DNA from: SAR86 cluster bacterium AG-422-O05
Lineage (GTDB): Bacteria; Pseudomonadota; Gammaproteobacteria; Magnimaribacterales; D2472
Direction: 5' to 3'
Assembly (NCBI GenBank): GCA_003213495.1
Contig: QCMW01000001.1
Coordinates: 1,117,363-1,181,362 of the forward strand
Length of the DNA: 64,000 bases
Of the stretch, positions 4,538 through 20,356 are shown piece after piece. The position numbers were made by a program, and so were the translations under genes. The notes beneath the pieces are model-generated. The model did not search any database. It was not told the origin of the DNA and was given only the letters and a program-made list of their open reading frames with translations. The number at the start of each line of letters is the position of its first letter. Position 1 is the stretch's first letter.

Positions 4538-4927
4538 TTAACTAACGCAAAGATTTAATCCCATCATTACTAACACAACTATGGATGGCAGCCATACTAA
4601 TGGTCTTATCATTGGTATTGCGTACAAATTCACCGCAGCACCAACGAGATAAGCTATTCTTAGACCAAACCACACTTGAGCCAGTATTAAATTAACATCT
4701 CCTTTATCCATCACAACTGATAAAACTGCAAACGTTAAAAATAACGGTAATGATTGTCTTAAGTTATCACTTGCAGAAGCAAATCTGGCTGATAAATCAG
4801 TCATACCAGAGATATCACCACCAGTATAAGTCCAATTAACTAACGGTACCTTATGCAGTGAGAAACTCATTGTTAAAAAGAGATGCAAGACGTAGAACAT
4901 ACCTACACAAATTATTAAATTTTCCAT
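4538..4927 (-). CDS. MAPEG-family membrane protein
   Basis: 4 TM; R..AS.NL.QSLPLF and R.AY motifs; SD GAGGA upstream. Confidence 0.7.
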   Translation of the reverse strand: MENLIICVGMFYVLHLFLTMSFSLHKVPLVNWTYTGGDISGMTDLSARFASASDNLRQSLPLFLTFAVLSVVMDKGDVNLILAQVWFGLRIAYLVGAAVNLYAIPMIRPLVWLPSIVVLVMMGLNLCVS

Positions 4928-4950: not shown

Positions 4951-6906
4951 CTAATATTTTAAATTAATTTTTAATTCATCTAAATGACTTTCGTAATTTT
5001 TCCAATAATCCATTCCGCTTTTATAAATTGGTTGTCGAACCTGTTCTGCACTTGGTGTTTTTACTGATCGTTTTGATTTATAGAATTCAAGACAGGACTG
5101 TTCAAAAGGTATTTGACAATAATCAAGAATTTTTTTCACTGAATCTTCAAAGCTATTCACCACATCTTCATAATTAATAGATAGTATTTGGTTTGGAAGA
5201 ACTTTATTCCAATGATTCATAAGCTCAACATAATTATTATAATAACCGGCTAAATCTTTCAAATCGTAAGTAAATTCTTGGCCCTCAGCAAAAAGTTGTT
5301 TATAACAAGAAAAACACGCTGACATAGATGAACGCCTAATATCAATTATCTTTGCATTTGGTAGTATTAATTTTATAAGCCCAATGTGTCTAAAATTATT
5401 TGGCATCTTATCAATAAAATAAGGTTTATCAGATCTGAAAACTTCGCTATCTGAAATATATTTGTCTCCAATAAGTTTTAATTGAGGAGCAGACAGACTC
5501 AATAAGATATCAGGATAGCGTGAATCTATATCTTGAGTTTTTCTTTCGTTTAATCTTAGAGCAGTTGAAATAATATTTGGTAGCTCATGAGTTGGTTCAA
5601 CCATAGAATGTGAGGAAAGAATTTGCTCAATTAATGTAGATCCAACTCGCGGTAAGCCTAAAATAAATATTGGTGCTGAAGAATCTGAACCCCAATCAGA
5701 CTTCATTTGAAATAAATCTTCATTACATACATCCTTTTGATTTAAACAGTCTTGATGAAAGTCCTCTAAATTAAACAATGCTTTGCTTTTTTTAATTTCA
5801 TTTCCTTTTTTATAATTATCAAATGAATCATCAAAATTTTCTAAATCTTCATAGGCTTTGCCAAGTGCGAAATGCATGAATACTCTTTCATTTTCAGAAA
5901 TATATTTATCGTTAACCATTTCATTTAATGAAGCTACTTCTGCATCAGAAAACTTATAAGTTTTTAAATTAGCTAGACTCCAATAGGCATCTCCAAAGTA
6001 TTTATCGGTGTAATAAGCTTTTTTATAGGAACTAATAGATTTATTAAATTCTCCAGACGTTTTATATAAGTGCCCCATGGATAACATCACATCTGTATTT
6101 TTAGGTTCTAGATTTAATATATCGTTATATATTTTAATAGCTTCTTTGTACCTGTCTGTTCTGAACAAAGCAGTAGATAGCAACTTCATTGCATTAATAT
6201 TGGATTGGTTCTCATCATAAAAAAGTTGTGCATGTTTTAATGCTTCACCATATTTCTGTCTCTTTGTAAGAATATTTATGTAATCGTATTTAATTTTTGG
6301 ATTATCGGGATCAAATAATAATGCACTTTCTAGTAAAAACTCTGCATCTTCATATATGTTAAGATCACTTCCAATATTAGCTAATAGTCTCATCGCCTCT
6401 ATGTCATGAGGATGATCTCTTAAATATTCTCTGCAGATATGATCAGCTCTTACTAGCTTGCCTTCATGAGTATAGCTTAGTACGGTTTTTAATTCTGGAG
6501 GTAAATCTTTCAAATAAAATACATTTTTTTCTGCAAATTTAATAAGTTCTTCATTTGAATTTTCTAATGATAATATTCCTAGCCAAGATGATTGTAGTGA
6601 TGGATTATGCCTAACCGCTCTTAAATATGCTTTGAGTGCTCTATCCTTATTTTTTAATACAACATTATTGTGTCCAATTTCTTGATAAGCTCTTCCATAA
6701 TTAGGGTCAATTTGAATTAACTTGTCTAAACCTAATAAAGCTTCTTTAGTATCACTTAAGTATCTATGACATACAGATGTTAAATAAAAATATTCTTTAT
6801 TTGATATATTGCTTTTATATTTGTTACATAATTTTAAAGCACCATCAAAATCTCTATTCTGAATAGATAATTCAATTTCTTTAGATGGTTCCAGGTTTTG
6901 TTCCAT
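4951..6906 (-). CDS. TPR-repeat sulfotransferase family protein
   Basis: N-terminal TPRs; 5'-PAPS loop IFILGLPRVGSTLIEQILSSH, DKMPNNF, TPSAEQVRQPIY. Confidence 0.9.
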   Translation of the reverse strand: MEQNLEPSKEIELSIQNRDFDGALKLCNKYKSNISNKEYFYLTSVCHRYLSDTKEALLGLDKLIQIDPNYGRAYQEIGHNNVVLKNKDRALKAYLRAVRHNPSLQSSWLGILSLENSNEELIKFAEKNVFYLKDLPPELKTVLSYTHEGKLVRADHICREYLRDHPHDIEAMRLLANIGSDLNIYEDAEFLLESALLFDPDNPKIKYDYINILTKRQKYGEALKHAQLFYDENQSNINAMKLLSTALFRTDRYKEAIKIYNDILNLEPKNTDVMLSMGHLYKTSGEFNKSISSYKKAYYTDKYFGDAYWSLANLKTYKFSDAEVASLNEMVNDKYISENERVFMHFALGKAYEDLENFDDSFDNYKKGNEIKKSKALFNLEDFHQDCLNQKDVCNEDLFQMKSDWGSDSSAPIFILGLPRVGSTLIEQILSSHSMVEPTHELPNIISTALRLNERKTQDIDSRYPDILLSLSAPQLKLIGDKYISDSEVFRSDKPYFIDKMPNNFRHIGLIKLILPNAKIIDIRRSSMSACFSCYKQLFAEGQEFTYDLKDLAGYYNNYVELMNHWNKVLPNQILSINYEDVVNSFEDSVKKILDYCQIPFEQSCLEFYKSKRSVKTPSAEQVRQPIYKSGMDYWKNYESHLDELKINLKY

Positions 6907-6977: not shown

Positions 6978-9410
6978 TTAGAATTTATAAGATACTCTTA
7001 TACCAACATTTCTAGGTCTGTTAGTAGTAATTCTTGGAATATCATCCTGATCGTTATAGTAGAAGTTAGCTCTTTCATCAGTGATATTTCTAACAAAAAA
7101 TTCAACTTCTGTACCGTTAATATTTACACCATATGCTGCATCCCAAATTGTATAGGATGGTTGTTCAAGACGCTTAGCTGCCTCAAGTGAACTATATGCT
7201 TTATCAGCACTTTTCACAGCAACTTGTGTATATGCAGGATTACCTGCAAGCTCTGAATCAACTTTAACTCTAATGTTGTACTGGAGTTTTGGTGATAAAG
7301 GCATAGTACTTCCAACATTAGATATCTGAATAATTCTAGATTTATCCTCTGTCACTTCAGTATCATTATAGGAAACAGCACTAGCTACAGTTACGTTATC
7401 ACTTGGATACCATAAAATGTCAGCTTCCATACCTTTAATTTCTGCATCAGCAGCATTTTCAATAAATGTTAGTAGACCAACATTTACAGGATCAAACTGA
7501 GATACTTGAACGTCTGTCCAATCAACCCAGTAATACGAAGCATTCAATCTTAACGTTCCGTCTAACATGACAGTCTTAACACCTATTTCAGTATTAGTAG
7601 TATCATCAGTTCCATATGTAATTAACACTGATGGTAATGCTGAGTTTCTTGATGCTAAACCACCACCTCTATTGAAACCACCAGGTCTATAACCTTCTGA
7701 TCTTGTGAAGTACCACATGGTATCGTCATCAACAGTATATTTTGCAGACAGTTTTGTAATAGTATCATTCATATTTAATGGTTCAGTACTATGGTCACCA
7801 GACACATCATAGTCTCTTCCATTTGCAACGTTAGATCCTCTATATCCGAATTTAGATTGTCCTGTATAGTCAACATCTAAATCGTATTTTCTAGCACCAA
7901 CAATAACGTCTAGCTTATCTGATATTGGGAATGTTACCTCAGCAAAGTAAGCTGTTTGCTCTTCAGTTCTCTTAAGATCATTAAAGAATCTACATGCAGG
8001 TCTTCTTACACGACCTTCTCTGGACCAGGCTCCAGGTAAAGGATTATTTACTTGATAAGCAGCCCATGTACCTGCAGATGCAAATGGATGGTCAGTACCA
8101 AGATAACAATAATCATTTTCAGTTTCTAAAATACTTTCATCAATGAAAACACCAGCAGTATATGAGAATGGAAGATCACTTTCATCATTGCTTGAAACTC
8201 TAAATTCATGAGTTGTTCTTTGATTGTCATCAATCAGTTCAACTGAAACTGTAGCAGGTCCACAAAGTGTATATGCTGTATAGTTACATACATAATATGG
8301 TAACCATGCACCTACGTTTGCATAACCACTGTAGTCAACTTGCTGCTCTGATTCTCTCTCTAAGTATGCTCCAGTATATAAAGCATCTAATTTACCCATT
8401 CTTCCCTCTAAGGTTAAAGAAGTTTGTGAGAATGAGTCATCTAAAGTATCAGGAACAAATCTACTTACATTTAAATCGCCTTTAGCAGGGTCATAATCAA
8501 AAACACCATCAGCACTAATATCTTGGCTCATGTGAGTAATTAACATATCCCAATCATCACCAATTGATGATGCTGAAGAAATTCTAAAACCTTCATATGT
8601 TGCATCATTGAAGTTATCTTCTACAAGTGTTGAGTTATCTGAAACAACATGTGCTTGTGTTTGTGGATAGGAAGCAAAAGTTCCTCTACCTTCACCAGAC
8701 CACGTTCCGGCTACATTGTCGATATAACCGCCTTGCTCTGATTTATAGAAAACACCTCTAATTGACCAAACATCATTTATTAAAGGAATATTCATGTATG
8801 CGTCATATGAATAACTTGGATCACCGTGGGCAGTTGCATAATGAGACATATTAAAGCCACCTTCTTGAACATTGAATTTTGGCTTATTTGTAATCATTCT
8901 AACGGTACCTGCTTGTGAGCTTGCACCATACAGAGTTCCTTGTGGCCCAGGCAATACCTCAATCCGTTCCATATCAGCAACATATACATCAAGGTTTCTT
9001 CCTGGAACTTGTAAAGGTTGTTCATCTAAATATAAAGCTACGTTAGGTGTGGAACCCTGTGCAGCAGATAAGAAAACGTTTACCGGATCAACAGCCATAC
9101 CTCTTATATAAATTGTTGATTGACCAGGTCCTCTTCCGCCTGATGAAACATTTGGTAAAAATTGAACGTATTCATCAAAATTAGAAACGTTCATTTCTTT
9201 TAATGTTTCTTCTGTTAAAGCAGTAACTGTTACAGCCACTTTTGAAGCACTTTCATCCTTCTTGGTAGCAGAAACAACAACTTCTTCAATTTGTCTTTCT
9301 TGTGATTCAGCAGTTTGTGGAATCATTGCAGCAACAACTCCTAAAACCCCTAAAGAAAGCTTATTTTTAATTTTATTTAATTGTTCTTTTGTATTAATTA
9401 AATTAAACAT
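6978..9410 (-). CDS. TonB-dependent receptor (TBDR1)
   Basis: TonB box IEEVVVSA, plug GPQGTLYGASSQAG, C-terminal ...VSYKF; start set at ATG 9410 because of SD GAGGA. Confidence 0.93.
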   Translation of the reverse strand: MFNLINTKEQLNKIKNKLSLGVLGVVAAMIPQTAESQERQIEEVVVSATKKDESASKVAVTVTALTEETLKEMNVSNFDEYVQFLPNVSSGGRGPGQSTIYIRGMAVDPVNVFLSAAQGSTPNVALYLDEQPLQVPGRNLDVYVADMERIEVLPGPQGTLYGASSQAGTVRMITNKPKFNVQEGGFNMSHYATAHGDPSYSYDAYMNIPLINDVWSIRGVFYKSEQGGYIDNVAGTWSGEGRGTFASYPQTQAHVVSDNSTLVEDNFNDATYEGFRISSASSIGDDWDMLITHMSQDISADGVFDYDPAKGDLNVSRFVPDTLDDSFSQTSLTLEGRMGKLDALYTGAYLERESEQQVDYSGYANVGAWLPYYVCNYTAYTLCGPATVSVELIDDNQRTTHEFRVSSNDESDLPFSYTAGVFIDESILETENDYCYLGTDHPFASAGTWAAYQVNNPLPGAWSREGRVRRPACRFFNDLKRTEEQTAYFAEVTFPISDKLDVIVGARKYDLDVDYTGQSKFGYRGSNVANGRDYDVSGDHSTEPLNMNDTITKLSAKYTVDDDTMWYFTRSEGYRPGGFNRGGGLASRNSALPSVLITYGTDDTTNTEIGVKTVMLDGTLRLNASYYWVDWTDVQVSQFDPVNVGLLTFIENAADAEIKGMEADILWYPSDNVTVASAVSYNDTEVTEDKSRIIQISNVGSTMPLSPKLQYNIRVKVDSELAGNPAYTQVAVKSADKAYSSLEAAKRLEQPSYTIWDAAYGVNINGTEVEFFVRNITDERANFYYNDQDDIPRITTNRPRNVGIRVSYKF

Positions 9411-9482
9411 ATGAATCCTCATAGTTAGTTAATATAAATTGCAAATAAACTAGCCTGGTGACCCCAGAAGATTCCCCCCCAG

Positions 9483-9530
9483 AGAAGTTTAGCCATATTT
9501 ATAGACCAGCAATTTCTGTAAATCGGTCTT
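9483..9530 (-). ncRNA. SAM-II (SAM-alpha) riboswitch aptamer
   Basis: Minus strand AAGACC-GAUUU-ACAGAAA-UUGC-UGGUCU-AUAAAUAUG-GCUAAA-CUUCU: P1 AGACC/GGUCU, GAUUU loop, UUGC/GC(U)AA pseudoknot, A-rich L3, P2a AGAA/UUCU. Confidence 0.82.
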
Positions 9531-9537
9531 GATGACA

Positions 9538-9565
9538 ATCATAACATCTTAAAATAATGATGCAA
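9538..9565 (-). promoter_or_regulatory. sigma70 promoter for the riboswitch-TBDR1 transcript
   Basis: TTGCAT, 16 nt, extended -10 TG-T-TATGAT; predicted +1 near 9531, directly at P1 of the aptamer. Confidence 0.6.
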
Positions 9566-9664
9566 TATAGATATAAAAATTGCATATAAGTAAAGATAAA
9601 CAATTTATATAACTAGAAAATTTGTACTATTTATGTTTCACTAGATTTTAAATTACGCAGTTTA

Positions 9665-11155
9665 ATGAACAATTTAAGTAAGCCAAGATTCTTATTATCC
9701 ATACTTCTTATTGTAGTTATAACGACAATTGTTTCTTTAAATTCTGACATTTCAGAATCATTTTTTCTTAATCTTCAATCATCTTTATCTAAGTATCTTG
9801 GTTGGATGATCATTATATTAGCTAATGGTTTTTTAATATTTGCAATATGTCTGGTCTTTACAAAATATAAAAATATTAGACTGGGTGGCCCAAATGCTGT
9901 TCCTAAATATTCCTATGTAAACTGGATAGCTATGTTATTTAGTGCAGGTTTAGGTATTGGTCTCTTATTTTATGGTGTAGCTGAACCAATAATGCACCTA
10001 AATTCTTATCCTGGAATGCTTGATGACAATGTTTCATATAATGCAGGAAAGGCCATTGGATTAGCTAATCTTCATTGGGGTCTGCATGGTTGGGCCATAT
10101 ACTCATTACTTGGTCTTTGTTTTGCTTTTGCAGCATATAATAAAAAACTACCTTTTAGAGTAAGTTCACTCCTCGGAAAAAATGTTGCAAACAACAAGCC
10201 TCTAGCAGTAAGTATCGATATTATTGCGATTTTAACAACTGTCTTAGGAGTTACTACATCACTTGGTCTAGGCACAATTCAAATAAGCTCTGGTCTCTCG
10301 TATGTTTTCTCTGTGCCTGAAAGTTTTGTTAATCAAGTAATTATTATCGTAATAATTACATTAATTGGACTTGCTAGTGTTTGTTTAGGATTAGATAAAG
10401 GAATCAAAAGACTATCGCAAATTAATATGGTGCTTGCTACGACACTTATGATGTTCATTTTTCTATTTGGACCTACCGTTTTTATATTAAATGCATTAAT
10501 TCAAAATTTTGGATCCTATATAAATACACTAATTGAGTCTGCTACATGGACTGAAGTTTATGAATCGACAACTTGGCAAAATGGCTGGACATTGTTCTTT
10601 TATACATGGTGGTTTGCTTGGGCACCATTTGTTTCGTTGTTTATAGCTAGAATTTCTTATGGAAGAACAATTAAAGAGTTCATTATTGGTGTTTTATTTG
10701 TACCATCGTTAATAGTTTTTTTATGGATGGGAATCTTTGGTAATGCAGCTATATATCAAGTAATAAATGAAACAAGTCAATTGAATGAAATTGTAAACAA
10801 TAATTACACTGTTGCTCTTTTTGCTTTATTTGATGTTTACCCTATAGCAACGATAGTTTCTATGCTTGCGTTGCTAATCATTGTAACTTTTTTTGTTACG
10901 TCTTCTGATTCAGGAGCCTTAGTAGCTTCAATGCTTTCGTCTAAAAGTCATGTAGGTATTCACGATGATTCTCCGATTTTATCAAGAGTTACCTGGGCAA
11001 TATTGTTAGGCATTGTTGCGGCAGTTCTTTTATACAAAGGTGGTCTTACTGCACTTCAAACCTCAGTTGTAATATGTGGAGTGCCTTTTTCTATTATTGT
11101 TGTTTTTGCTTGTCGACAGTTTTATAAATCTTTAGAAAGTGAGCTAGAAGACTAA
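9665..11155 (+). CDS. BCCT-family (betaine/choline/carnitine) transporter
   Basis: WIAMLFSAGLGIGLLFYGVAEP, HWGLHGWAIY, WTLFFYTWWFAWAPFV, FFVTSSDSG. Confidence 0.93.
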   Translation: MNNLSKPRFLLSILLIVVITTIVSLNSDISESFFLNLQSSLSKYLGWMIIILANGFLIFAICLVFTKYKNIRLGGPNAVPKYSYVNWIAMLFSAGLGIGLLFYGVAEPIMHLNSYPGMLDDNVSYNAGKAIGLANLHWGLHGWAIYSLLGLCFAFAAYNKKLPFRVSSLLGKNVANNKPLAVSIDIIAILTTVLGVTTSLGLGTIQISSGLSYVFSVPESFVNQVIIIVIITLIGLASVCLGLDKGIKRLSQINMVLATTLMMFIFLFGPTVFILNALIQNFGSYINTLIESATWTEVYESTTWQNGWTLFFYTWWFAWAPFVSLFIARISYGRTIKEFIIGVLFVPSLIVFLWMGIFGNAAIYQVINETSQLNEIVNNNYTVALFALFDVYPIATIVSMLALLIIVTFFVTSSDSGALVASMLSSKSHVGIHDDSPILSRVTWAILLGIVAAVLLYKGGLTALQTSVVICGVPFSIIVVFACRQFYKSLESELED

Positions 11156-11932: not shown

Positions 11933-12631
11933 TCATAATATAATCTTCTCTATATTATTAAGATCATTATGAATAATTTCTTCATTACTTAAACTTACTA
12001 AGTGAACATTGGTATCAGTCCCAAAACTAACAGAATACTTTGGAATATCATTTACAAGATGTAGGGCGCAAAAACCCTCTATAGCAATGCACTCATCGAT
12101 TTGTTTGTTATTGAGAATTTCTTTTACATAAGGAATCCTTTCAGGCTCTTCATCATAATGAGGACAACATACACCATCAACAAAACCAAGGCATGGCAAA
12201 ATAGCTTGGTGATCTTTCCATGAATCTGTTATGCCATTATTAAACCAGCATATTGCGCCTGCACTGACTCCACTCATAATTACTCCATTCTGATAAGCAT
12301 TATTTAAAATATTATCGAGGCCCCACTCTCTCCAAACCGCAAGCATGCTTTTTGTATTTCCTCCTCCAACAAAAACTATATCTTGTTCTGCAATATGTTT
12401 ATCTAATTTAATAGTTCTCTTAAAAAAATCTATATGAGAAGTTTTGCAATTTAGCGAATCAAAAGCTTTATAAAAATTCTCAATATAGCCTTGATCATCT
12501 CCAGTTGCGGTTGGAATGAAACAAATTGATGGATTTTTGTTTTTTGACTGATTAACTATATATTTTTCAATTTTTAAATCCTTTATTTGACGGCCAAATC
12601 CACCACCACCAATTGCAATAATTTGTTTCAT
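11933..12631 (-). CDS. Peptidase E / S51 family dipeptidase
   Basis: IAIGGG, FIPTA, FVGGGNT, GVSAGA nucleophile, CPHYD. Confidence 0.88.
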   Translation of the reverse strand: MKQIIAIGGGGFGRQIKDLKIEKYIVNQSKNKNPSICFIPTATGDDQGYIENFYKAFDSLNCKTSHIDFFKRTIKLDKHIAEQDIVFVGGGNTKSMLAVWREWGLDNILNNAYQNGVIMSGVSAGAICWFNNGITDSWKDHQAILPCLGFVDGVCCPHYDEEPERIPYVKEILNNKQIDECIAIEGFCALHLVNDIPKYSVSFGTDTNVHLVSLSNEEIIHNDLNNIEKIIL

Positions 12632-14226
12632 TATTCTTTCAACTCCATATTTAAAGTTTGTTTTAAAGGGTCAAGCCAAGGTTCAAAATATTCCCATTGA
12701 CCTACTCCTTTTTTATATATTGGTTGTCTAACTTGTTCTGAACTTGGAGTTCTAACTGTTCTCTTGGTTTTAAAAAAATTTAAACAATCTTCTTCAAAAT
12801 CAAGCTCACAAAAATCCAATAATTTTCTTATTTCAACTTCAGTATTTTCTACCATGTCCTCATATACGACTTTATGAACTTTATTTGGTAAAACTTTATT
12901 CCAATGCTGCATAAGTTTTAAATAATCAAGATAATAATTTCCAATCCTATTTTGAGAATAAGTAAAACCTTGACCAGAACCAAAAAGTTGCTTGTAACAG
13001 CTAAAACAGCAATCCATTGGATTTCTTCGTGTATCAATTATCTTTGCATTAGGAAGAATGAGGTGAATTAGGCCAATATGAACAAAGTTATTTGGCATCT
13101 TGTCTATAAAATAAGGTTTATCAGTCACTCTTTGGTCAAGTGTATTGTCAATATATGCCTTACCCATTTTTTTGAATTCTGATTTTTTCATATTTTTTAA
13201 GGCAGATGGATATTCAGATTTGCTAGAAGAATCTTTTTTATTAGCGATCTTTCTTGATAAAGCAATAATATTCTGTAACTCAGTTGTTCCTTCTACAAGA
13301 GAGTGTGATGATAAAATTTGCTCAACAAGTGTTGAACCCGATCTTGGAAGACCAACAACAAATATCGGATCAGAATTCTTGTCACCAACACCTTCGTATT
13401 CTTTTATAAAATCTTTAGTAAAAAAATTTATTAACTCATTACATTCATTTGTAAAGTCTCTTGAATCCCATGGAACCTGTTTACTTTTTATGGTGTTACC
13501 TTTTGTATATGCAGCCATAGCTGATTCAAAGTTTTTAGCATCTTCTTCAGCTTTACCTAAAGCAAATAGCAAGTGAAAATAATCATCAATTTTACAATCT
13601 TTATCATTTAACAGTTCATGCAAACTTTTCATATCACTTTCAGTGAACTTATAAGTTTTTAAATTAGCTAAACTCCAATATGCTTCTCCATATCCTGTTT
13701 TACTGGAAATAGCATTTTTATATGAATTAATTGCTTCGTCTAATCTTCCAACAGCTCTGAGCGTATGTCCGTAACTTAAATGAAGTTGGTTGTTTTTAAC
13801 CCCATGATCTTTAATAATTTTCTCAAAAATTGTTAAAGCCTGATCGTGTTGATTTGCTAAGGCCAAATTTACTGCTTTAAGAGTTAAGTATTGATTATTA
13901 TTTGCTTCTTTTTCTAAAAGAATATTTATATGTTTAAGAGCTTCAAATGGAAGCTGTCTTTTATATAAAAGATTCGCATAACTTAACCTAGCTGGGTCAT
14001 ATTCAGGAGATAAATCTAAAGCACGTGTGAGCAAATATCCAGCATCTTTATAGGCTCTAAATTTAATACCAATATCAGCCAATAGCTTCATTGCATTAAC
14101 ATCCATAGGATATTCCATAAGATAATCTCTTAGGATGGGTTCAGCTTTCTTTAGTTTTTCCTCTGAGATATATTTCGCGGCTTGTATTAAAGCTTCAGGA
14201 ATATTATCTTTAGAATATGCGTTCAA
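12631..14226 (-). CDS. TPR-repeat sulfotransferase family protein (paralog 2)
   Basis: TPRs; IFVVGLPRSGSTLVEQILSSH, DKMPNNF, RNPMDCCFS, TPSSEQVRQPIY; TTG start. Confidence 0.9.
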   Translation of the reverse strand: MNAYSKDNIPEALIQAAKYISEEKLKKAEPILRDYLMEYPMDVNAMKLLADIGIKFRAYKDAGYLLTRALDLSPEYDPARLSYANLLYKRQLPFEALKHINILLEKEANNNQYLTLKAVNLALANQHDQALTIFEKIIKDHGVKNNQLHLSYGHTLRAVGRLDEAINSYKNAISSKTGYGEAYWSLANLKTYKFTESDMKSLHELLNDKDCKIDDYFHLLFALGKAEEDAKNFESAMAAYTKGNTIKSKQVPWDSRDFTNECNELINFFTKDFIKEYEGVGDKNSDPIFVVGLPRSGSTLVEQILSSHSLVEGTTELQNIIALSRKIANKKDSSSKSEYPSALKNMKKSEFKKMGKAYIDNTLDQRVTDKPYFIDKMPNNFVHIGLIHLILPNAKIIDTRRNPMDCCFSCYKQLFGSGQGFTYSQNRIGNYYLDYLKLMQHWNKVLPNKVHKVVYEDMVENTEVEIRKLLDFCELDFEEDCLNFFKTKRTVRTPSSEQVRQPIYKKGVGQWEYFEPWLDPLKQTLNMELKE

Positions 14227-14239
14227 TTGTAATTAAATA

Positions 14240-14268
14240 AAAAAGGCTGCATCCAGTACAGCCTTTTT
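14240..14268 (-). terminator. Intrinsic terminator/stem-loop after TBDR2
   Basis: aaaaaggctg-catccagta-cagccttttt. Confidence 0.75.
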
Positions 14269-14286
14269 GTTAGTTATTAAATACTA

Positions 14287-16554
14287 TTATTTATAGTTCC
14301 AACTAAATTTAACACCAACTGTAGTTGGTCTATTTACAGTAGTTAATCGTTGGATATCTTCACTATTTATATAAAGTTGTGCAACTTCATCAAATATATT
14401 GTCCATATATATTTGCATTGTCGAGTTTTCTCCAACTTGCGTAGTGAATGATAAATTAGCAATACCATAGGAGTCTTGCATCTCTCTATCATCATAGAAA
14501 AGATCGTTCCACATTTCATCTACATAAACATAGTTGAACTGAAGACTTGATGTATCACCAGTATCTACATTAACAGTTACGTTATATTTAGTATCAGGGG
14601 TAAATGGAAGGTCTTGACCATCTTTAGCCTCTACCACTCCTCTTAATACATAATCTTCCTTGAGAACAGCTTCATTATTGGCATAACCAACAGCTACGGT
14701 CACTGTGTCACTAAGAATATACTTAGCATCAATCTCAAAACCGTTACTATTTGCTTTACCAATATTATCAACTAGACCTAGCAATGATATTGAGGAGTCA
14801 AACCATCCAAGCTGGATATCATCCCAATCCATTTGATACATAGCACCGTTTAATCTTAGTCTTCCATCCATAGAGATAGATTTAAACCCAAACTCTGTAC
14901 TAGTTAAGAAGTCTGCATCATAAGTAGCGCCTAATTGAGATGTTCTATTAGCACCACCAGGTCTATATCCTTCAGATCTAGTAATGTAAAGCATAGAATT
15001 GTTGTCTACTTGATATGATAGATTAATTTTTGAAATACTATCGCTGCCATCATATTTAGAATTGACATTGTCAGATCGTGTTGAGCTACCTAAGATATAA
15101 TTTGGCCAGAAAACAGTTCCAACAAACCCCTTTAAAGTGGTTTCATTATCAAACTTTCTATGACCTAATGTTAATTCCATTTTGTCATTAATTTGATAGT
15201 AAAGTTCACCAAAAACAGCTGATTCATCCTCGGCTCTTACTTGATCTGTTTGATAATACAAATCATCAGAACCAGGAACAGCAGCAGCTGGATTAATTGC
15301 TGGAACGTGCCATTGTGAATCATACTCAGTTACGTTTTCAGTTTGGAAAGCTCCAATTATCCAATTAAATTTTTCACCTTCTTTTGATGATAGTCTTACT
15401 TCAGTTGTGTCATATTCTTGATGAGTATCGTTTTCAAATTGGATACTAGGATCAACACAAGGACCAAAATAGTATTCGTAACAGGTGTAATATCCTTCAA
15501 CATAACCATCAATTGAATAGTGAGAATAATCACTTAATACTTCAAAATCTCTCTCTAAGCTTGATGTAGTAAAAGTTAAATCTGCAAATCCGAGATCACC
15601 AGTTACTGTAGCTGAAAATCTAGTCCACTCATCATGAGTTTTGTCATCATAAAACCTACTTACGTTATATTCTCCAAGCTCATCTGGATTATGGTCCCAA
15701 ACACCATTTGTTGATGTTTCTTGACCCATGTAGTTAACATCTAGTTTCCAGTTTTCACTTAGATCAACTCTTAATGCAGCTCTATAACCATCTTTAACTG
15801 CATCGTTAAAGTTATCTTCAACGAAAACTTCATTAGACCTTGTAATACCACTTACTGGATAGGTAATTGAATCATTTACTGAATCAATAAAACCACCATC
15901 CCTGTCGTTAAATCCAACAAACCTTAAAGCAGCATTTTGTGATAGAGGAATATTAACGAAACCTTCAACCATTGTGCTTCCATCTCCACCCCGGGTAGAT
16001 TCAGCACTTAAATTAAAACCAGAATCAAACTCTGAGGAAGGTTTTTTTGTAATTATTTTTAAATTACCGGCTTGTGATGCTGCCCCATATAATGTTCCTT
16101 GTGGACCAGTTAATGACTCAACTCTCTCAATATCATAAACATGAACATCAAGATTATCACCAATCATTGTTACTGGAGATTCATCTAAGTATATAGCTAC
16201 AGCTGGGCCTTGCAGTGATTGGTTTACATTACCACCATCAGATATACCTCTCATAAAGATTTGGCCTTGACCAGGTCTTCTTTGAACAGCAGAGGCTGCA
16301 GGCAATTGAAGCACATAGTCAGCAAAATCTTTAATATTTAATGAATCAAGCTCATCAGCAGATAAGGTTGTTACACTTATTGGTACATTTTGAAGGTTTT
16401 CAGATTTCTTTTGAGCGCTGACAATAACCTCTTCGATCATCATATCGTCTTGTGCAATAGTATTAGCACTCACTAAAACTGCAGATGCAATCGCAGTAGC
16501 TTTTGTAGTTTTAACTACAGCATCGTGAACCTTCTCGGCATGAAAAATATTCAT
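14287..16554 (-). CDS. TonB-dependent receptor (TBDR2, paralog of TBDR1)
   Basis: IEEVIVSA, GPQGTLYGAASQAG, TRSEGYRPGG shared with TBDR1; start at ATG 16554 after GGGGG SD. Confidence 0.93.
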   Translation of the reverse strand: MNIFHAEKVHDAVVKTTKATAIASAVLVSANTIAQDDMMIEEVIVSAQKKSENLQNVPISVTTLSADELDSLNIKDFADYVLQLPAASAVQRRPGQGQIFMRGISDGGNVNQSLQGPAVAIYLDESPVTMIGDNLDVHVYDIERVESLTGPQGTLYGAASQAGNLKIITKKPSSEFDSGFNLSAESTRGGDGSTMVEGFVNIPLSQNAALRFVGFNDRDGGFIDSVNDSITYPVSGITRSNEVFVEDNFNDAVKDGYRAALRVDLSENWKLDVNYMGQETSTNGVWDHNPDELGEYNVSRFYDDKTHDEWTRFSATVTGDLGFADLTFTTSSLERDFEVLSDYSHYSIDGYVEGYYTCYEYYFGPCVDPSIQFENDTHQEYDTTEVRLSSKEGEKFNWIIGAFQTENVTEYDSQWHVPAINPAAAVPGSDDLYYQTDQVRAEDESAVFGELYYQINDKMELTLGHRKFDNETTLKGFVGTVFWPNYILGSSTRSDNVNSKYDGSDSISKINLSYQVDNNSMLYITRSEGYRPGGANRTSQLGATYDADFLTSTEFGFKSISMDGRLRLNGAMYQMDWDDIQLGWFDSSISLLGLVDNIGKANSNGFEIDAKYILSDTVTVAVGYANNEAVLKEDYVLRGVVEAKDGQDLPFTPDTKYNVTVNVDTGDTSSLQFNYVYVDEMWNDLFYDDREMQDSYGIANLSFTTQVGENSTMQIYMDNIFDEVAQLYINSEDIQRLTTVNRPTTVGVKFSWNYK

Positions 16555-16618
16555 AGTTTCCCCCAAATAAATAAATTATTGCTAAATATTATAATAAAAA
16601 CGTTTTATAGTAAATTTT

Positions 16619-18175
16619 TTAATAGCCCAATACACGACATACATCAATAGACCTGCTCGGTTTCATTGATATTTCTTCATTAAATGATAGAACATTAAAG
16701 ATATTAGAATCATATTGCTGCCATTCCATTAGTCGTTTGTTTGGATTACCTGTCTTTATAAAATTTACCCAAAAATCTTGGATTTTATTTGTTATAACTA
16801 TGTCTGTATCGCTTGTTGGTAACCAATCATCATGCGTATTAAAAATATATGGCAATTCTGCTCCATGGTAGGCACCCATTTCTCTACTTTTAGGACCATC
16901 TCTTACTCTATCAAACGAATAGAACCAGACTTGATTATTGGTGTTTTCTTTCAGAGATTTTGCAATAAAAGATGAGGGACACGTCCAGTTTCTAGCTGTT
17001 AATAGATAATTAAGTTTCTCCTTTTCATTTTTGATACTTGATGTGAGTGAATCTAATTTTTCTGTTTCGGTATAAAAGCCCCAACTTTCACGTTCATTAT
17101 AAAAATCATATAAATAATAATCCTTATCCAGATACATAAGCTCTTCATCAGCATTTGTGCCAATAATTAGATCAACGTGATTATAATTTCCTTGTTCATA
17201 AGATTTATAAAGCGACTCAAAAATAGAAAAATTATCTATAACAGGATAATAACCAACGTATCCAAATATTTCTTCAGCTGAATAAAGTAAAGTTACAGAA
17301 TCAACTGCTCGTAATTCTTTTAAGTTATTTAATTTATTAGTTTTGCCAATTAGTTTTTTAGATAACTTATCTGATAGTTCTGTTTGAATATCATAATCTA
17401 TATCTTTTTCTGCTATAGACCAGCCTGCGCTCTGATGAATAGCTTTATTAAATAAACCTTTTGCTAAGGGAGAAGCAATTAAATGTGCAACATTGGTGGC
17501 ACCAGCTGATTCACCTGAAATTGTAATATTTTCTGGGTCTCCTCCAACTTTAGCAATATTTTCTCTAACCCAATTTAATGACTCTATCAAATCAAGTAAT
17601 GCAAAATTAGATGCATCTAAATAAGGATGCGAGTAAAAACCAAAAACTCCAAGCCGATAAGAAACAGTGATAACAATTACACCCTTTCTGGATAAGTTTT
17701 TTCCAATATAATTTGGTTCAAATGACCAACCAGCTCTATTTGATCCCCCATGAATATAAATGAGTACAGGAATTTTTTCTTTATTATCAAGTTCATTAGG
17801 AACCCACATATTTAGATACAAACAATCTTCAGAAATTTCTGGTGTTTTAATATAATTAGGGTCGCCTCCAAATCCAGCAGCTACTCCCTTATACCAATTT
17901 ACAATTCTTGGGCCTTGCATGCATGCAGGTGCAAATTTATCCGCCACAAACCTATTTGTTTCAAATATTTTTGGTTGTGTAACTTCCCACCTCAGTGAAC
18001 CAATTGGTGGCTCTGCATAAGGCACACCCAAATAAATATCTACATCTTCAGAGGAGATTCCAACTATTTCTGTATCATTAACGTAAAAACTTGGGTTTGC
18101 AATTATTTCAAAAGTAGAAACATGTGCTGTCATTATTAATAAGATTTTAAGAGTATTTTTTTTCAGGTTATGCAT
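16619..18175 (-). CDS. Type-B carboxylesterase (cholinesterase fold)
   Basis: YLGVPYAEPP, SEDCLYLN, IHGG, GESAG nucleophile, HGAEL. Confidence 0.9.
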   Translation of the reverse strand: MHNLKKNTLKILLIMTAHVSTFEIIANPSFYVNDTEIVGISSEDVDIYLGVPYAEPPIGSLRWEVTQPKIFETNRFVADKFAPACMQGPRIVNWYKGVAAGFGGDPNYIKTPEISEDCLYLNMWVPNELDNKEKIPVLIYIHGGSNRAGWSFEPNYIGKNLSRKGVIVITVSYRLGVFGFYSHPYLDASNFALLDLIESLNWVRENIAKVGGDPENITISGESAGATNVAHLIASPLAKGLFNKAIHQSAGWSIAEKDIDYDIQTELSDKLSKKLIGKTNKLNNLKELRAVDSVTLLYSAEEIFGYVGYYPVIDNFSIFESLYKSYEQGNYNHVDLIIGTNADEELMYLDKDYYLYDFYNERESWGFYTETEKLDSLTSSIKNEKEKLNYLLTARNWTCPSSFIAKSLKENTNNQVWFYSFDRVRDGPKSREMGAYHGAELPYIFNTHDDWLPTSDTDIVITNKIQDFWVNFIKTGNPNKRLMEWQQYDSNIFNVLSFNEEISMKPSRSIDVCRVLGY

Positions 18176-18845
18176 TTTTATTATGAAATTCTATCAATCT
18201 TTTCTTCCAGAGCCTCGTAAGAATATTAAATTCTGTAGGTTTTACAATAAATTCTTGAAAAATTAAGTTTCTGTCGATCATCAAAATAACAATCTGATTG
18301 ATATCAGTATCAAACATTACATTATGCGCATTTGCATAGGCACAACATTGAAGAAAATAATCTTCAATCCACTCTCTCTTTTTCATTTTTCTAGCAGTCT
18401 TAAAATCTATCAGAGATGGCACTCCATTAATCTTACCAACACAATCTGCTGTTCCAGCATACAAACCATCAAGAATTAATCCCACCTCTAAACCCCACAC
18501 TTCAGTAATAGAATTAAGTCCAGATTCAATAAATTTTTCAGTCATTCTTTCAGCAAGAACTCCATCTTCATTATCAGAAAAATTTCTCCACTCCTGTTCA
18601 TTTAGATATAACTCTAAAGCCTCATGAACCATAGTTCCAATATCTGTACTCTGTTTAATGATTCTATTAGCCTCTTCTTCACCAACTCTATTGCGCCACT
18701 GCTGAATAGAATCTTTTTTATTGGAGGTTTTATTTAAAACCGTAGTAACACTAGGTACTGGATTATTTTTTGAATCTAAATAAAATCTACCTTCGTTACT
18801 CTCTTGTCTTTTTAACTCAGGATAAGTATAAATATTTGTTATCAT
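18168..18845 (-). CDS. PD-(D/E)XK exonuclease, phage/MGME1-like
   Basis: PSVTTVL, WR.RVG.EEA, GT.VH, YAGTADC, IDFKT, YFLQ..AYA; no Fe-S cysteine cluster. Confidence 0.8.
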   Translation of the reverse strand: MITNIYTYPELKRQESNEGRFYLDSKNNPVPSVTTVLNKTSNKKDSIQQWRNRVGEEEANRIIKQSTDIGTMVHEALELYLNEQEWRNFSDNEDGVLAERMTEKFIESGLNSITEVWGLEVGLILDGLYAGTADCVGKINGVPSLIDFKTARKMKKREWIEDYFLQCCAYANAHNVMFDTDINQIVILMIDRNLIFQEFIVKPTEFNILTRLWKKRLIEFHNKNA

Positions 18846-18868
18846 TACTTTTTACTTTGCGATTTAAA

Positions 18869-20356
18869 ATGTTTAAATTAAAAATTAATCCACTTTGGAA
18901 TATATCAGTAATATTTATTACTTTTTTCTTTTTAATTATTCTCTCATCATATGTTTTAAATAATCCAAATGAAAGTGCAAATACACTTAAAAATATTTAC
19001 GATTTTTTTGCTATTAATTTTGAATCATATTTTTTAATAATTAGTTTTTTAATTCTTATTTTTTTGATTCTTATAGCAATTACTCCTGTAGGTTCTAAAG
19101 TGCTTGTCCTTGAAGGAAAGGATACATTTTCTTATTTTTCATGGTGTTCCATGTTATTTGCAACAGGGCTGGGTGCTGCTTTGTTATATTGGTCTACAGT
19201 AGAATGGTTGGTATATTTTACAGACCCAGTGGATGGAGTTAGAACTGAGGAATCAATAAACTATCTAAAAGCAAGGTCATATCCTCATTTTCATTGGGGT
19301 TTAACAGGTTGGGCAATTTATTGCCTTCCGACTATTGCTTTTTCACTGGCTCTAATTAACAAACCTAATACACCTCTAACTTTTTCTGGAATATTGTTAA
19401 AAAAACAATCTGGAATATTAAGACTATTTCTAGATTTAATATTTATTGGAGCAATACTCACAGGTGCAGGAGTAGGCTTAACTCTATCATTCCCTTTAAT
19501 CTCAGCTGTGATATCAAAAGTATTTTTAGTTGATAAAAATATCTATTTAGATTTTTCAGCTTTGGTTTTATGTCTTCTAATATTTGGATCAAGTGTTTAC
19601 CTTGGTATTCAAAAAGGAATCAAAAGGTTAAGTAATTTAAATATAATTTTGGTAATAATATTTTTGTTGTTTATATTATTTTCTGGTCCGACTTCCTATA
19701 TTGTTAAAAATACCATCGAACCCCTTGGTTATATGTTTAGTAATTTTATTGATTTGAGTTTATCAAGTTCAAAATACAGTATTACTTGGACAGTTTTTTA
19801 TTGGGCATGGTATTTTGCTTTAGCTCCTGCTGTTGGAACTTTTATTGTCAATATTTCAAATGGAAAATCAATAAGAGAAATTGTATTTGGATGCTTGCTA
19901 ATTGGCTCTCTTGGGTGTTTTTTTCATATTGGTGTACTAAGTAACTCATCTATTTATTTGTTTGAGAATAATATATTTAATGCTCCTGAAGTTTATAGCT
20001 CTGGAACTGCTGGTCTTGAAACCATTGTTGTAGAAACTATTTCATCTTTAGACTTTGGCTTTTATTTATTAATAGCTTTTGGGGTGATAGCAATTATTTT
20101 TCTATGCACAACCTATGACTCCTCTTCCTATATTTTAGCTACGGCGGCGATGAAAAATTTTAAGGATGAACCCTCGCGAAATTTAAGATTATTTTTTGCA
20201 TTCATGCTCATAATTCAACCTGCCCTAATAATGTTTCTTGGCGGAGGGGATTCTTTTATGTGGCTTTTAGTTATATTTTCGGTACCATTGATATTCGTAA
20301 ATATTTTATTAGTAATCTCAATAGTTAAAAATGCAATTAAAATTAAAAAATCATAA
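18869..20356 (+). CDS. BCCT-family transporter (paralog 2)
   Basis: WCSMLFATGLG, FHWGLTGWAIY, KGIKRLS, WTVFYWAWY; start moved to ATG 18869 to avoid a head-on overlap. Confidence 0.88.
   Translation: MFKLKINPLWNISVIFITFFFLIILSSYVLNNPNESANTLKNIYDFFAINFESYFLIISFLILIFLILIAITPVGSKVLVLEGKDTFSYFSWCSMLFATGLGAALLYWSTVEWLVYFTDPVDGVRTEESINYLKARSYPHFHWGLTGWAIYCLPTIAFSLALINKPNTPLTFSGILLKKQSGILRLFLDLIFIGAILTGAGVGLTLSFPLISAVISKVFLVDKNIYLDFSALVLCLLIFGSSVYLGIQKGIKRLSNLNIILVIIFLLFILFSGPTSYIVKNTIEPLGYMFSNFIDLSLSSSKYSITWTVFYWAWYFALAPAVGTFIVNISNGKSIREIVFGCLLIGSLGCFFHIGVLSNSSIYLFENNIFNAPEVYSSGTAGLETIVVETISSLDFGFYLLIAFGVIAIIFLCTTYDSSSYILATAAMKNFKDEPSRNLRLFFAFMLIIQPALIMFLGGGDSFMWLLVIFSVPLIFVNILLVISIVKNAIKIKKS

Follow-up and report, generated by a model that had tools for sequence, protein, structure and literature searches.

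A putative SAM-II-type riboswitch in the leader of a TonB-dependent receptor operon of a SAR86 cluster bacterium

The receptor locus and its leader RNA

The present analysis concerns a 64 kb stretch of contig QCMW01000001.1 (hereafter the window) from the SAR86 cluster bacterium AG-422-O05, whose genome (G000; 1.28 Mb, 32% G+C, 96.7% complete) carries, ahead of a TonB-dependent receptor gene, a leader RNA resembling the SAM-II riboswitches for S-adenosylmethionine (SAM). All leader and operon coordinates refer to the minus strand of the window. The leader element is very likely a functional cis-regulatory RNA, and its segment at 9484-9529 is probably a diverged, SAM-sensing riboswitch of the SAM-II type, as judged from sequence comparison. 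The receptor gene (6978-9410) encodes 810 aa from AUG 9410 and contains a Pfam Plug domain (E 2e-16), while NCBIfam returns generic TonB-dependent receptor families alone, all below cut-off. Its translation start region (9408-9420) comprises the Shine-Dalgarno sequence GAGGA (9420-9416) and, 5 nt further on, the start codon AUG (9410-9408); the list of open reading frames (ORFs) opens the frame at an in-frame AUG at 9422, a codon preceded by no Shine-Dalgarno sequence. The second and third genes of the likely operon encode a TPR-repeat sulfotransferase-family protein (4951-6906), which lacks an evident signal peptide and is a member of an uncharacterised family, and a MAPEG-family membrane protein (4538-4927). 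The window's own genus (g1) and the g10 and g11 loci share the order receptor, TPR-sulfotransferase, MAPEG, and receptor plus sulfotransferase were seen in g17, so that the second gene holds its place in three other genera.

The leader promoter (9538-9565) consists of a -35 hexamer TTGCAT (9565-9560), a 16-nt spacer and an extended -10 element TGnTATGAT (9546-9538). A -10 of the form TGnTAT..T sits 7-9 nt before AGAC in all four genera that carry the leader, and TTGCAT is kept in three of them; a consensus promoter scan did not call this promoter, whose -35 agrees with TTGACA at 3/6 positions only. Promoter geometry places the transcription start at 9530-9531, which is 7-8 nt past the -10 and immediately before the first helix (P1). 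RNA-library contigs from four studies span the leader and the 5' coding region, with upstream ends at 9530, 9526, 9518 and 9470. That none of these four extends upstream of 9530 is a weak hint of a start near this position, given that contigs cannot prove a start and that stretches without contig cover are not evidence of absence.

The aptamer (9484-9529) is modelled as an H-type pseudoknot, delimited by its invariant columns and by alignment to a covariance model (R3, described below). The original prediction listed SAM-II hallmarks in a defined order on this strand, and each was located where it had been placed. The 5' strand of P1, AGACC (9529-9525), is followed by GAUUU (9524-9520), in which AUUU (9523-9520) supplies the third strand of loop L1, and then by ACA. 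The 5' strand of P2a/P2b, GAAAUUGC (9516-9509, containing AAAUUGC at 9515-9509), leads through U9508 to the 3' strand of P1, GGUCU (9507-9503). P1 gains a sixth pair, G9524-U9508, and thus extends over 9529-9524 with 9508-9503 (AGACCG/UGGUCU); this six-pair P1 stacks directly under P2b, as in solved structures. The A-rich linker L3, AUAAAUAUG (9502-9494), has an invariant central AAA with variable flanks, as in true SAM-II; across the leaders it measures 8-10 nt and contains no hairpin, in line with the A-rich linker of roughly 8-12 nt that is expected of SAM-II. The 3' strand of P2b, GC(U)AAA (9493-9488, with U9491 bulged), is followed by CUUCU (9487-9483), in which UUC (9486-9484) forms the 3' strand of P2a, and the leader continues as CUUCUCU. 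For P2a, predicted as AGAA/UUCU, the three pairs GAA/UUC are conserved and the fourth pair, A:U, is not.

About 60 nt separate the aptamer region from the Shine-Dalgarno sequence, as had been claimed (the AUG lies 77 nt from GCUAAA), and the G-run and hairpin reported for this interval are present. The run of seven G (9474-9480) corresponds to a G-run of 4-7 in most leaders and is degenerate in two (L074, L076). In the loop after it, an additional C follows 9473 in three of the four RNA-library contigs, which fits the length variation among congeneric leaders. The hairpin UCUGG-GGUCA-CCAGG with its U-rich tail (9454-9468) is terminator-like (one found by the scan vs 0.1 in shuffles); with a stem of 5 bp only, it was rejected as a strong intrinsic terminator. 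By eye, the other genera show different stems at this site, namely CUAGG/CCUAG, UUAGG/CCUAA and UCAGGC/GCCUGA. Downstream lies a strand (9436-9450) composed of the U-rich GUUUAUUU (9450-9443) and GCAAUUU (9442-9436), the former complementary to the L3 linker, the latter to the P2 5' strand AAAUUGC. The minimum free energy (MFE) of the whole leader has a z-score of -0.09, and folding energy alone is thus uninformative.

Conservation of the leader in related genomes

All 11 of the closest receptor orthologues (61-100% identity, tblastn) are preceded by a nearly identical leader. A 137-nt leader query found matches in 37/139 family genomes, representing 4/10 genera and occurring once per genome. 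The aptamer retains 33 invariant columns in 35 leaders while the rest of the leader diverges, and its core stays invariant across the four genera as receptor identity falls to 37%. The conservation of GAUUU, UUGC and GCUAAA expected of ortholog leaders is thereby borne out, apart from two clades in which GAUUU begins with A instead of G. The covariance model R2, derived from the receptor leaders, detects one strong copy per genome (68-81 bits) in 12/151 genomes of the order, all of the same family, and the next best score is about 28 bits. Weaker R2 hits (22-29 bits, 7 genomes) were considered as copies before other genes and rejected, since those examined either fall within coding sequence or have no P1. 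In 34/37 loci the element is followed by an ORF whose N-terminus is of receptor type; two of the others were missed by the search pattern and one is at a contig end. The Plug domain was confirmed in 5/5 receptors tested. In every locus with a readable downstream gene, the element thus precedes a TonB-dependent receptor, and the predicted target is upheld by the Plug domain and by the persistence of the leader as that of the receptor across orthologs.

In the 34 genome-derived leaders, P1 and P2 are paired in 99.5% of cells, with one-sided changes only. A metagenome scan in which the P2 and L1 letters were prescribed and P1 was left free added further copies, and about 51 of the first 116 matches listed are this leader (same core). 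With 36 distinct metagenome variants (53 distinct rows), 99.6% of cells are paired, a value that 0/500 shuffles reach. The six pairs of P1 are paired in 99.1% of cells, and two of them show compensatory changes (7:25 as CG/UG/UA and 8:24 as GU/AU/UA); two compensatory pairs are reached by 8/500 shuffles. P1 columns also carry compensatory differences between the leaders and the SAM-II elements of methionine (met) genes. P2b (UUGC/GC(U)AA) with its bulged U and the L1 U-triplet are invariant in 35/35 leaders as well as in 25/25 rows of a joint alignment with such elements. Since P2 is invariant, the pseudoknot is inferred by homology with solved SAM-II/SAM-V structures and not from covariation.

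A distant match to the motif was noted on a scaffold of Puteibacter caeruleilacunae (Bacteroidota; L109 3384-3431, minus strand), which reads AGACC...AUUU...GAAAUUGCUGGUCU...GCUAAA and gives a local R2 match of 22.1 bits. No ORF of 80 aa lies downstream of it, and Rfam assigns it to none of the SAM families; both a relationship to SAM-II and a chance match are conceivable.

Relationship to the SAM-II elements of the order

Genuine SAM-II elements are widespread in the same order: RF00521 (SAM_alpha) matches 63/101 of its genomes at E <= 0.01, with 11 over the cut-off. All 13 matches examined precede an ORF whose start lies 21-106 nt beyond the Rfam match, and Pfam assigns seven such ORFs to Cys_Met_Meta_PP (four, MetY-like) or S-methyl_trans (three, BHMT/MmuM-like). 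RF00521-type elements also occur in genomes carrying the receptor leader (G041, G043, G096, G107, G119). One further RF00521-type element (L183, G023:C4:94471-94545; 33.9 bits) was noted in a congeneric genome that does not carry the receptor leader. It precedes an S-methyl_trans gene and lies in the same island, flanked by the two receptor paralogues.

The two groups are linked by a covariance model (R3) derived from 31 met-gene SAM-II elements of the order; the E-values of this and the other self-built models (R1, R2) are rough. On the window, the leader is the top R3 hit (9530-9488, in register from P1 to GCUAAA; 19.2 bits, E 0.025). R3 likewise matches 16/16 leader loci at the right place and in the same register (13.1-31.0 bits, best E 1.9e-5), and because the leaders are clearly orthologous to one another, the significant copies carry the family.

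A joint alignment of 11 met-gene SAM-II elements and 14 leaders (25 rows) permits comparison at the level of the binding pocket. Loop lengths of the leaders equal those of the same-order SAM-II elements, and the invariant columns of the two coincide. With the SAM contacts numbered as in the account of the solved SAM-II structure (PMC3303485) and their SAM-V equivalents taken from the corresponding comparison in PMC6061858, the equivalents of U10-U12, U20, U21, G22, the bulged U44 and A45-A47 are identical in 11/11 met-gene elements and 14/14 leaders. The A19 equivalent is A in 14/14 leaders, the met-gene elements having six A and five C. All SAM-contact equivalents are therefore kept, including the U:A.U triple to which the SAM-V and SAM-II papers attribute the reading of the sulfonium charge (PMC6061858; PMC3303485), and the pocket shows no visible change. 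The element is regarded as real because it is conserved and similar to SAM-II elements of the same order.

Proposed regulatory switch

As the heptamer at 9436-9442 is able to pair with the P2 5' strand, an OFF switch is proposed in which aptamer and anti-aptamer strand compete; the details of its read-out are far less certain than the riboswitch call. A pairing-competent heptamer complementary to the P2 5' strand is found in 32/34 distinct leaders, compared with 9% of shuffles of the same stretch and with only 3/11 met-gene SAM-II elements of the order. The heptamer helix is paired in 97.9% of cells, C-to-U and A-to-G changes keep wobble pairs, and forcing the helix gives an energy equal to the unconstrained MFE in 21/34 leaders. 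The claim of a non-canonical expression platform thus stands in a modified form, as the anti-P2 heptamer is special to these leaders, whereas a long distance between aptamer and start is usual in the order (13/13).

As modelled, the aptamer would begin at, or one base past, the transcription start of the receptor/TPR-sulfotransferase/MAPEG operon. Binding of SAM to the P2b/L1 triplex would lock the pseudoknot; in the absence of SAM, AAAUUGC and the A-rich linker would instead pair with the downstream strand GUUUAUUU-GCAAUUU (9450-9436), which SAM would release. For two sister genera (g17 and g11), the prediction is that the released strand pairs with the Shine-Dalgarno region and so stops translation. 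When the alternative fold is compared with an aptamer fold in which the aptamer nucleotides are blocked, the modelled probability of an unpaired Shine-Dalgarno sequence falls from 0.61 to 0.12 in g17 and from 0.59 to 0.24 in g11, while it passes from 0.61 to 0.60 in g10. In the window's genus, the candidate read-outs are the weak terminator-like hairpin with its U tract (9468-9443), which would be partly taken up by the alternative fold, and a long-range structure around the ribosome-binding site. The net effect would be an operon that is on when SAM is low.

Two results tell against this scheme. The modelled change in Shine-Dalgarno accessibility is almost nil in the window's own genus (0.61 to 0.56), and the helix between linker and U-tract shows no co-evolution, with -5.93 kcal/mol for a leader's own pairing, -6.00 kcal/mol after swapping and 2320/5000 permutations as low. 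A by-eye impression of co-variation between the A-rich linker and the U-tract was rejected on the strength of this swap control, although the pairing is always possible; of the two helices, that of the heptamer alone counts as evidence. Direct anti-Shine-Dalgarno pairing by CUUCUC (9487-9482) or AAUCUUC (9473-9467) was likewise rejected, as these segments vary uncompensated while GAGGA is fixed.

Weighing of the evidence and alternative explanations

The assignment to SAM-II has to be set against several results that weigh against it, among them the silence of Rfam. Rfam 15 gives no match at gathering score across the window, and no SAM family (SAM_alpha, SAM-II long-loop and SAM-V included) at E <= 10 on stretches of 351 nt (9350-9700) or 63 nt (9478-9540), so that the covariance-model support anticipated by the original prediction is not obtained. 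In the own genome, RF00521, RF01826 and RF01726 yield nothing over cut-off; their best hits, at 12 bits elsewhere, 19.3 bits elsewhere and 28.7 bits inside gatC, amount to noise. A descriptor of the motif (P1 of at least 4 bp, then AUUU, UUGC, AAA and GCUAAA), drawn up after both sequence sets had been seen, finds this site as its one hit in the genome; it is also expected 0.65 times per shuffled genome (mean of 20), and the motif alone is therefore not beyond chance. With the model R1, derived from 20 alphaproteobacterial SAM-II hits, the site is the top match of the window, yet at 11.9 bits and E 0.18, and in the reverse direction R2 recovers 0/25 alphaproteobacterial SAM-II loci. Genome-wide, R3 gives this copy an E of 0.51, second to an unrelated 21.6-bit hit (G000:C1:166533-166601, minus strand; E 0.12) that has no AUUU/UUGC/GCUAAA architecture and is probably noise. 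P2 never varies within the leaders and hence offers no covariation for the pseudoknot, and the metagenome rows are uninformative on this point, their P2 letters being fixed by the search pattern. Finally, the element was never found before a methionine or SAM gene (37 loci; R2 in 151 genomes), so the identity of the ligand is drawn from resemblance alone. The SAM-II assignment is therefore carried by the architecture, the invariant equivalents of the SAM contacts and the in-register R3 alignment, rather than by Rfam, by R1 or by the genome-wide R3 score.

One alternative is that the leader is some other conserved cis-regulatory RNA (a protein- or small RNA-binding site, or a ligand-independent attenuator) whose likeness to SAM-II is an AU-rich coincidence. 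The silence of Rfam, the chance expectation of the descriptor, the marginal model E-values of this copy and the lack of covariation in P2 would all agree with it. It is nevertheless considered unlikely, since R3 aligns all 16 orthologous leaders in one register, the invariant columns and loop lengths of the leaders are those of SAM-II, and P1 covaries at the predicted columns. Even less room is left for a functionless chance motif kept by promoter or ribosome-binding-site constraint or by recent descent, an explanation that could draw on the great overall similarity of leader copies within a genus. The core is invariant over four genera in which the receptor drops to 37% identity and the flanking leader is free to diverge, and the same core recurs in about 51 of the 116 metagenome stretches listed; a chance motif is thus refuted in practice and retains hardly any credibility.

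A further alternative is a change of ligand, in which a SAM-II-derived aptamer would have kept its scaffold while responding to S-adenosylhomocysteine (SAH), a SAM breakdown product or the imported compound. Such a shift would suit an element that, wherever the downstream gene is readable, accompanies an uptake operon and in no case a methionine or SAM gene. It would also suit the lower R3 scores of the leaders (13-31 bits vs 34-77 bits for met-gene SAM-II of the same genomes) and the lineage-specific invariant letters outside known contacts, for example the A after AUUU where SAM-II mostly has G. The preservation of every SAM-contact equivalent in all leaders, the U:A.U triple included, and of a pocket without visible change makes this improbable, and a diverged SAM-II-type riboswitch that senses SAM is preferred.

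Neighbouring genes and related loci

Beyond the MAPEG gene lie genes for a gamma-glutamyltranspeptidase and a class-V aminotransferase, and a BCCT transporter gene (start 9665) diverges from the leader. A conserved plus-strand motif, TTATGTTTCACTAG (9631-9644), is situated about 20 nt before the BCCT start and may serve the transporter gene as an operator or leader element. It is common to genomes with the riboswitch leader and to genomes with another receptor type at this place. The latter comprise 10 congeneric genomes (L022, L023, L025-L031, L033) with a receptor of about 41% identity at the same BCCT-adjacent position, preceded by its own conserved leader (AAAUUUGCAUAGUUU...) without SAM-II motifs; the locus seems to exist there in an allelic or replacement form.

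The window holds a second minus-strand module (11933-20356) with a TonB-dependent receptor (14287-16566), a TPR-sulfotransferase (12631-14226), an S51 peptidase, a carboxylesterase and a second BCCT gene. Receptor and TPR-sulfotransferase thus occur together a second time, with the riboswitch-like leader on the first copy only. In two g11 loci (L152 2421-3554 and L155 2692-3837, both minus strand), a GcvT-family gene follows the receptor/sulfotransferase/MAPEG operon; the dimethylsulfoniopropionate (DMSP) demethylase DmdA belongs to the GcvT family. In a g17 locus (L153, G168:C1:845900-855400), the receptor behind the element is broken into three ORFs (252, 242 and 279 aa), which indicates a frameshifted gene or assembly errors.

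Physiological implications

SAR86 genomes of this size are described by Dupont et al. (PMC3358033) as lacking sulfate reduction, with methionine synthesis partly missing, and as relying on DMSP and glutathione; many TonB-dependent receptors are also reported there. The genome examined here contains metK. Sulfite reductase (NIR_SIR), S-methyl_trans and Meth_synt_2 (MetE) were not found in it, no MetH/BHMT-type homocysteine methyltransferase is detectable, and PAPS_reduct gives a hit below cut-off only. It has one MetY-like gene with no SAM-II motif upstream, and the leader element is the sole SAM-II-like sequence found in the genome. With metK present and the genes for sulfate reduction and methionine synthase undetected, control of an uptake operon by SAM is sensible. 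Expression of the operon at low SAM would fit a cell that has to take up reduced sulfur or methionine; there are hints that the receptor system feeds the methionine/SAM supply, and an imported reduced-sulfur or methyl-donor substrate is physiologically plausible as far as gene content goes. More tentatively, the operon may be dedicated to the high-affinity capture of organosulfur or methionine/SAM-related compounds from seawater, with the riboswitch as the only SAM sensor kept by the streamlined genome and with an anti-aptamer design of its own in place of the textbook Shine-Dalgarno sequence in P2a; this fuller picture is possible, though doubtful as a whole.

On that fuller picture, control over the sulfur or methyl-group balance of an abundant ocean heterotroph would sit at the outer membrane and not with biosynthetic enzymes. 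If SAM-dependent control holds true, an outer-membrane uptake operon would join the SAM-II regulon as a new kind of target. The leader also shows that a whole AT-rich branch of SAM-II, frequent in marine metagenomes (about 51 of the first 116 matches listed), escapes current Rfam models. The element would also provide a first functional handle on one of the many uncharacterised SAR86-like TonB-dependent receptors: should SAM repress the operon, the substrate ought to feed the methionine/SAM or reduced-sulfur supply, and the long-standing question of what such receptors import becomes directly testable. The question of the substrate matters in cells unable to reduce sulfate or, as in the present genome, to make methionine from homocysteine. 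The word "riboswitch" does not occur in PMC3358033. The searchable portions of the literature held nothing relevant on SAR86 with riboswitches or sulfotransferases, or on SAM-II or other SAM riboswitches with TonB, though the supplementary alignments of two papers (PMC2704228, Additional file 7; PMC6061858, Figure S2) could hold cases of the latter.

Comparison with known systems

The marine, AT-rich setting of the leader is shared with SAM-V (RF01826), which is found in Pelagibacter before metY, bhmT and mmuM, and so is the kind of pocket (U triple, bulged U, A.A pair), as far as it is set out in PMC6061858 and PMC2704228. Unlike SAM-V, the leader has no P3 stem-loop in the linker, and its P2b comprises 4 pairs against the longer UUGUGC/GCAC(U)AA; RF01826 matches 0/101 genomes of the order at E <= 0.01. 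The SAM-II element of Sinorhizobium meliloti, in the account of its expression given in PMC9373788, resembles the present case in a start codon far downstream (74 nt there, 77 nt here) and in a purine-rich stretch right after the aptamer. It differs in requiring a Shine-Dalgarno sequence inside the riboswitch and in having a terminator between two AUGs (PMC9373788), whereas a normal Shine-Dalgarno sequence lies 5 nt before the AUG here.

The closest relatives are the RF00521 elements of the order itself, that is, the MetY-like and BHMT/MmuM-like copies. They share with the leader an H-type pseudoknot with P1 and the elements GAUUU, UUGC, A-rich L3 and GC(U)AAA in the same order, as well as the same letters at nearly all SAM-contact positions. 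Some of these local copies have the same 7-nt spacing between GAUUU and UUGC, and the 13 examined likewise have a start codon tens of nt downstream. The leader departs from them in falling under every Rfam threshold, in a P1 of AGACCG/UGGUCU instead of the GC-rich P1 of the family, in an A after AUUU (vs G) and in a 3' tail of CUUCUCU followed by the G-run (vs AGG). In contrast to the met-gene elements, it generally carries the anti-P2 heptamer (32/34 vs 3/11) and controls an outer-membrane receptor operon, not methionine or SAM enzymes. The element is rated a new variant of the known SAM-II class with a new kind of target gene.

A functional parallel is provided by btuB of Escherichia coli, a TonB-dependent receptor gene under a cobalamin riboswitch, by which uptake is shut off when the cell is replete. 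Both systems place an outer-membrane TonB-dependent receptor behind a metabolite-sensing leader. They part in the nature of the signal, as the btuB ligand is the imported compound or a cofactor form of it, whereas the metabolite sensed here would be SAM, probably an end product several steps removed from import.

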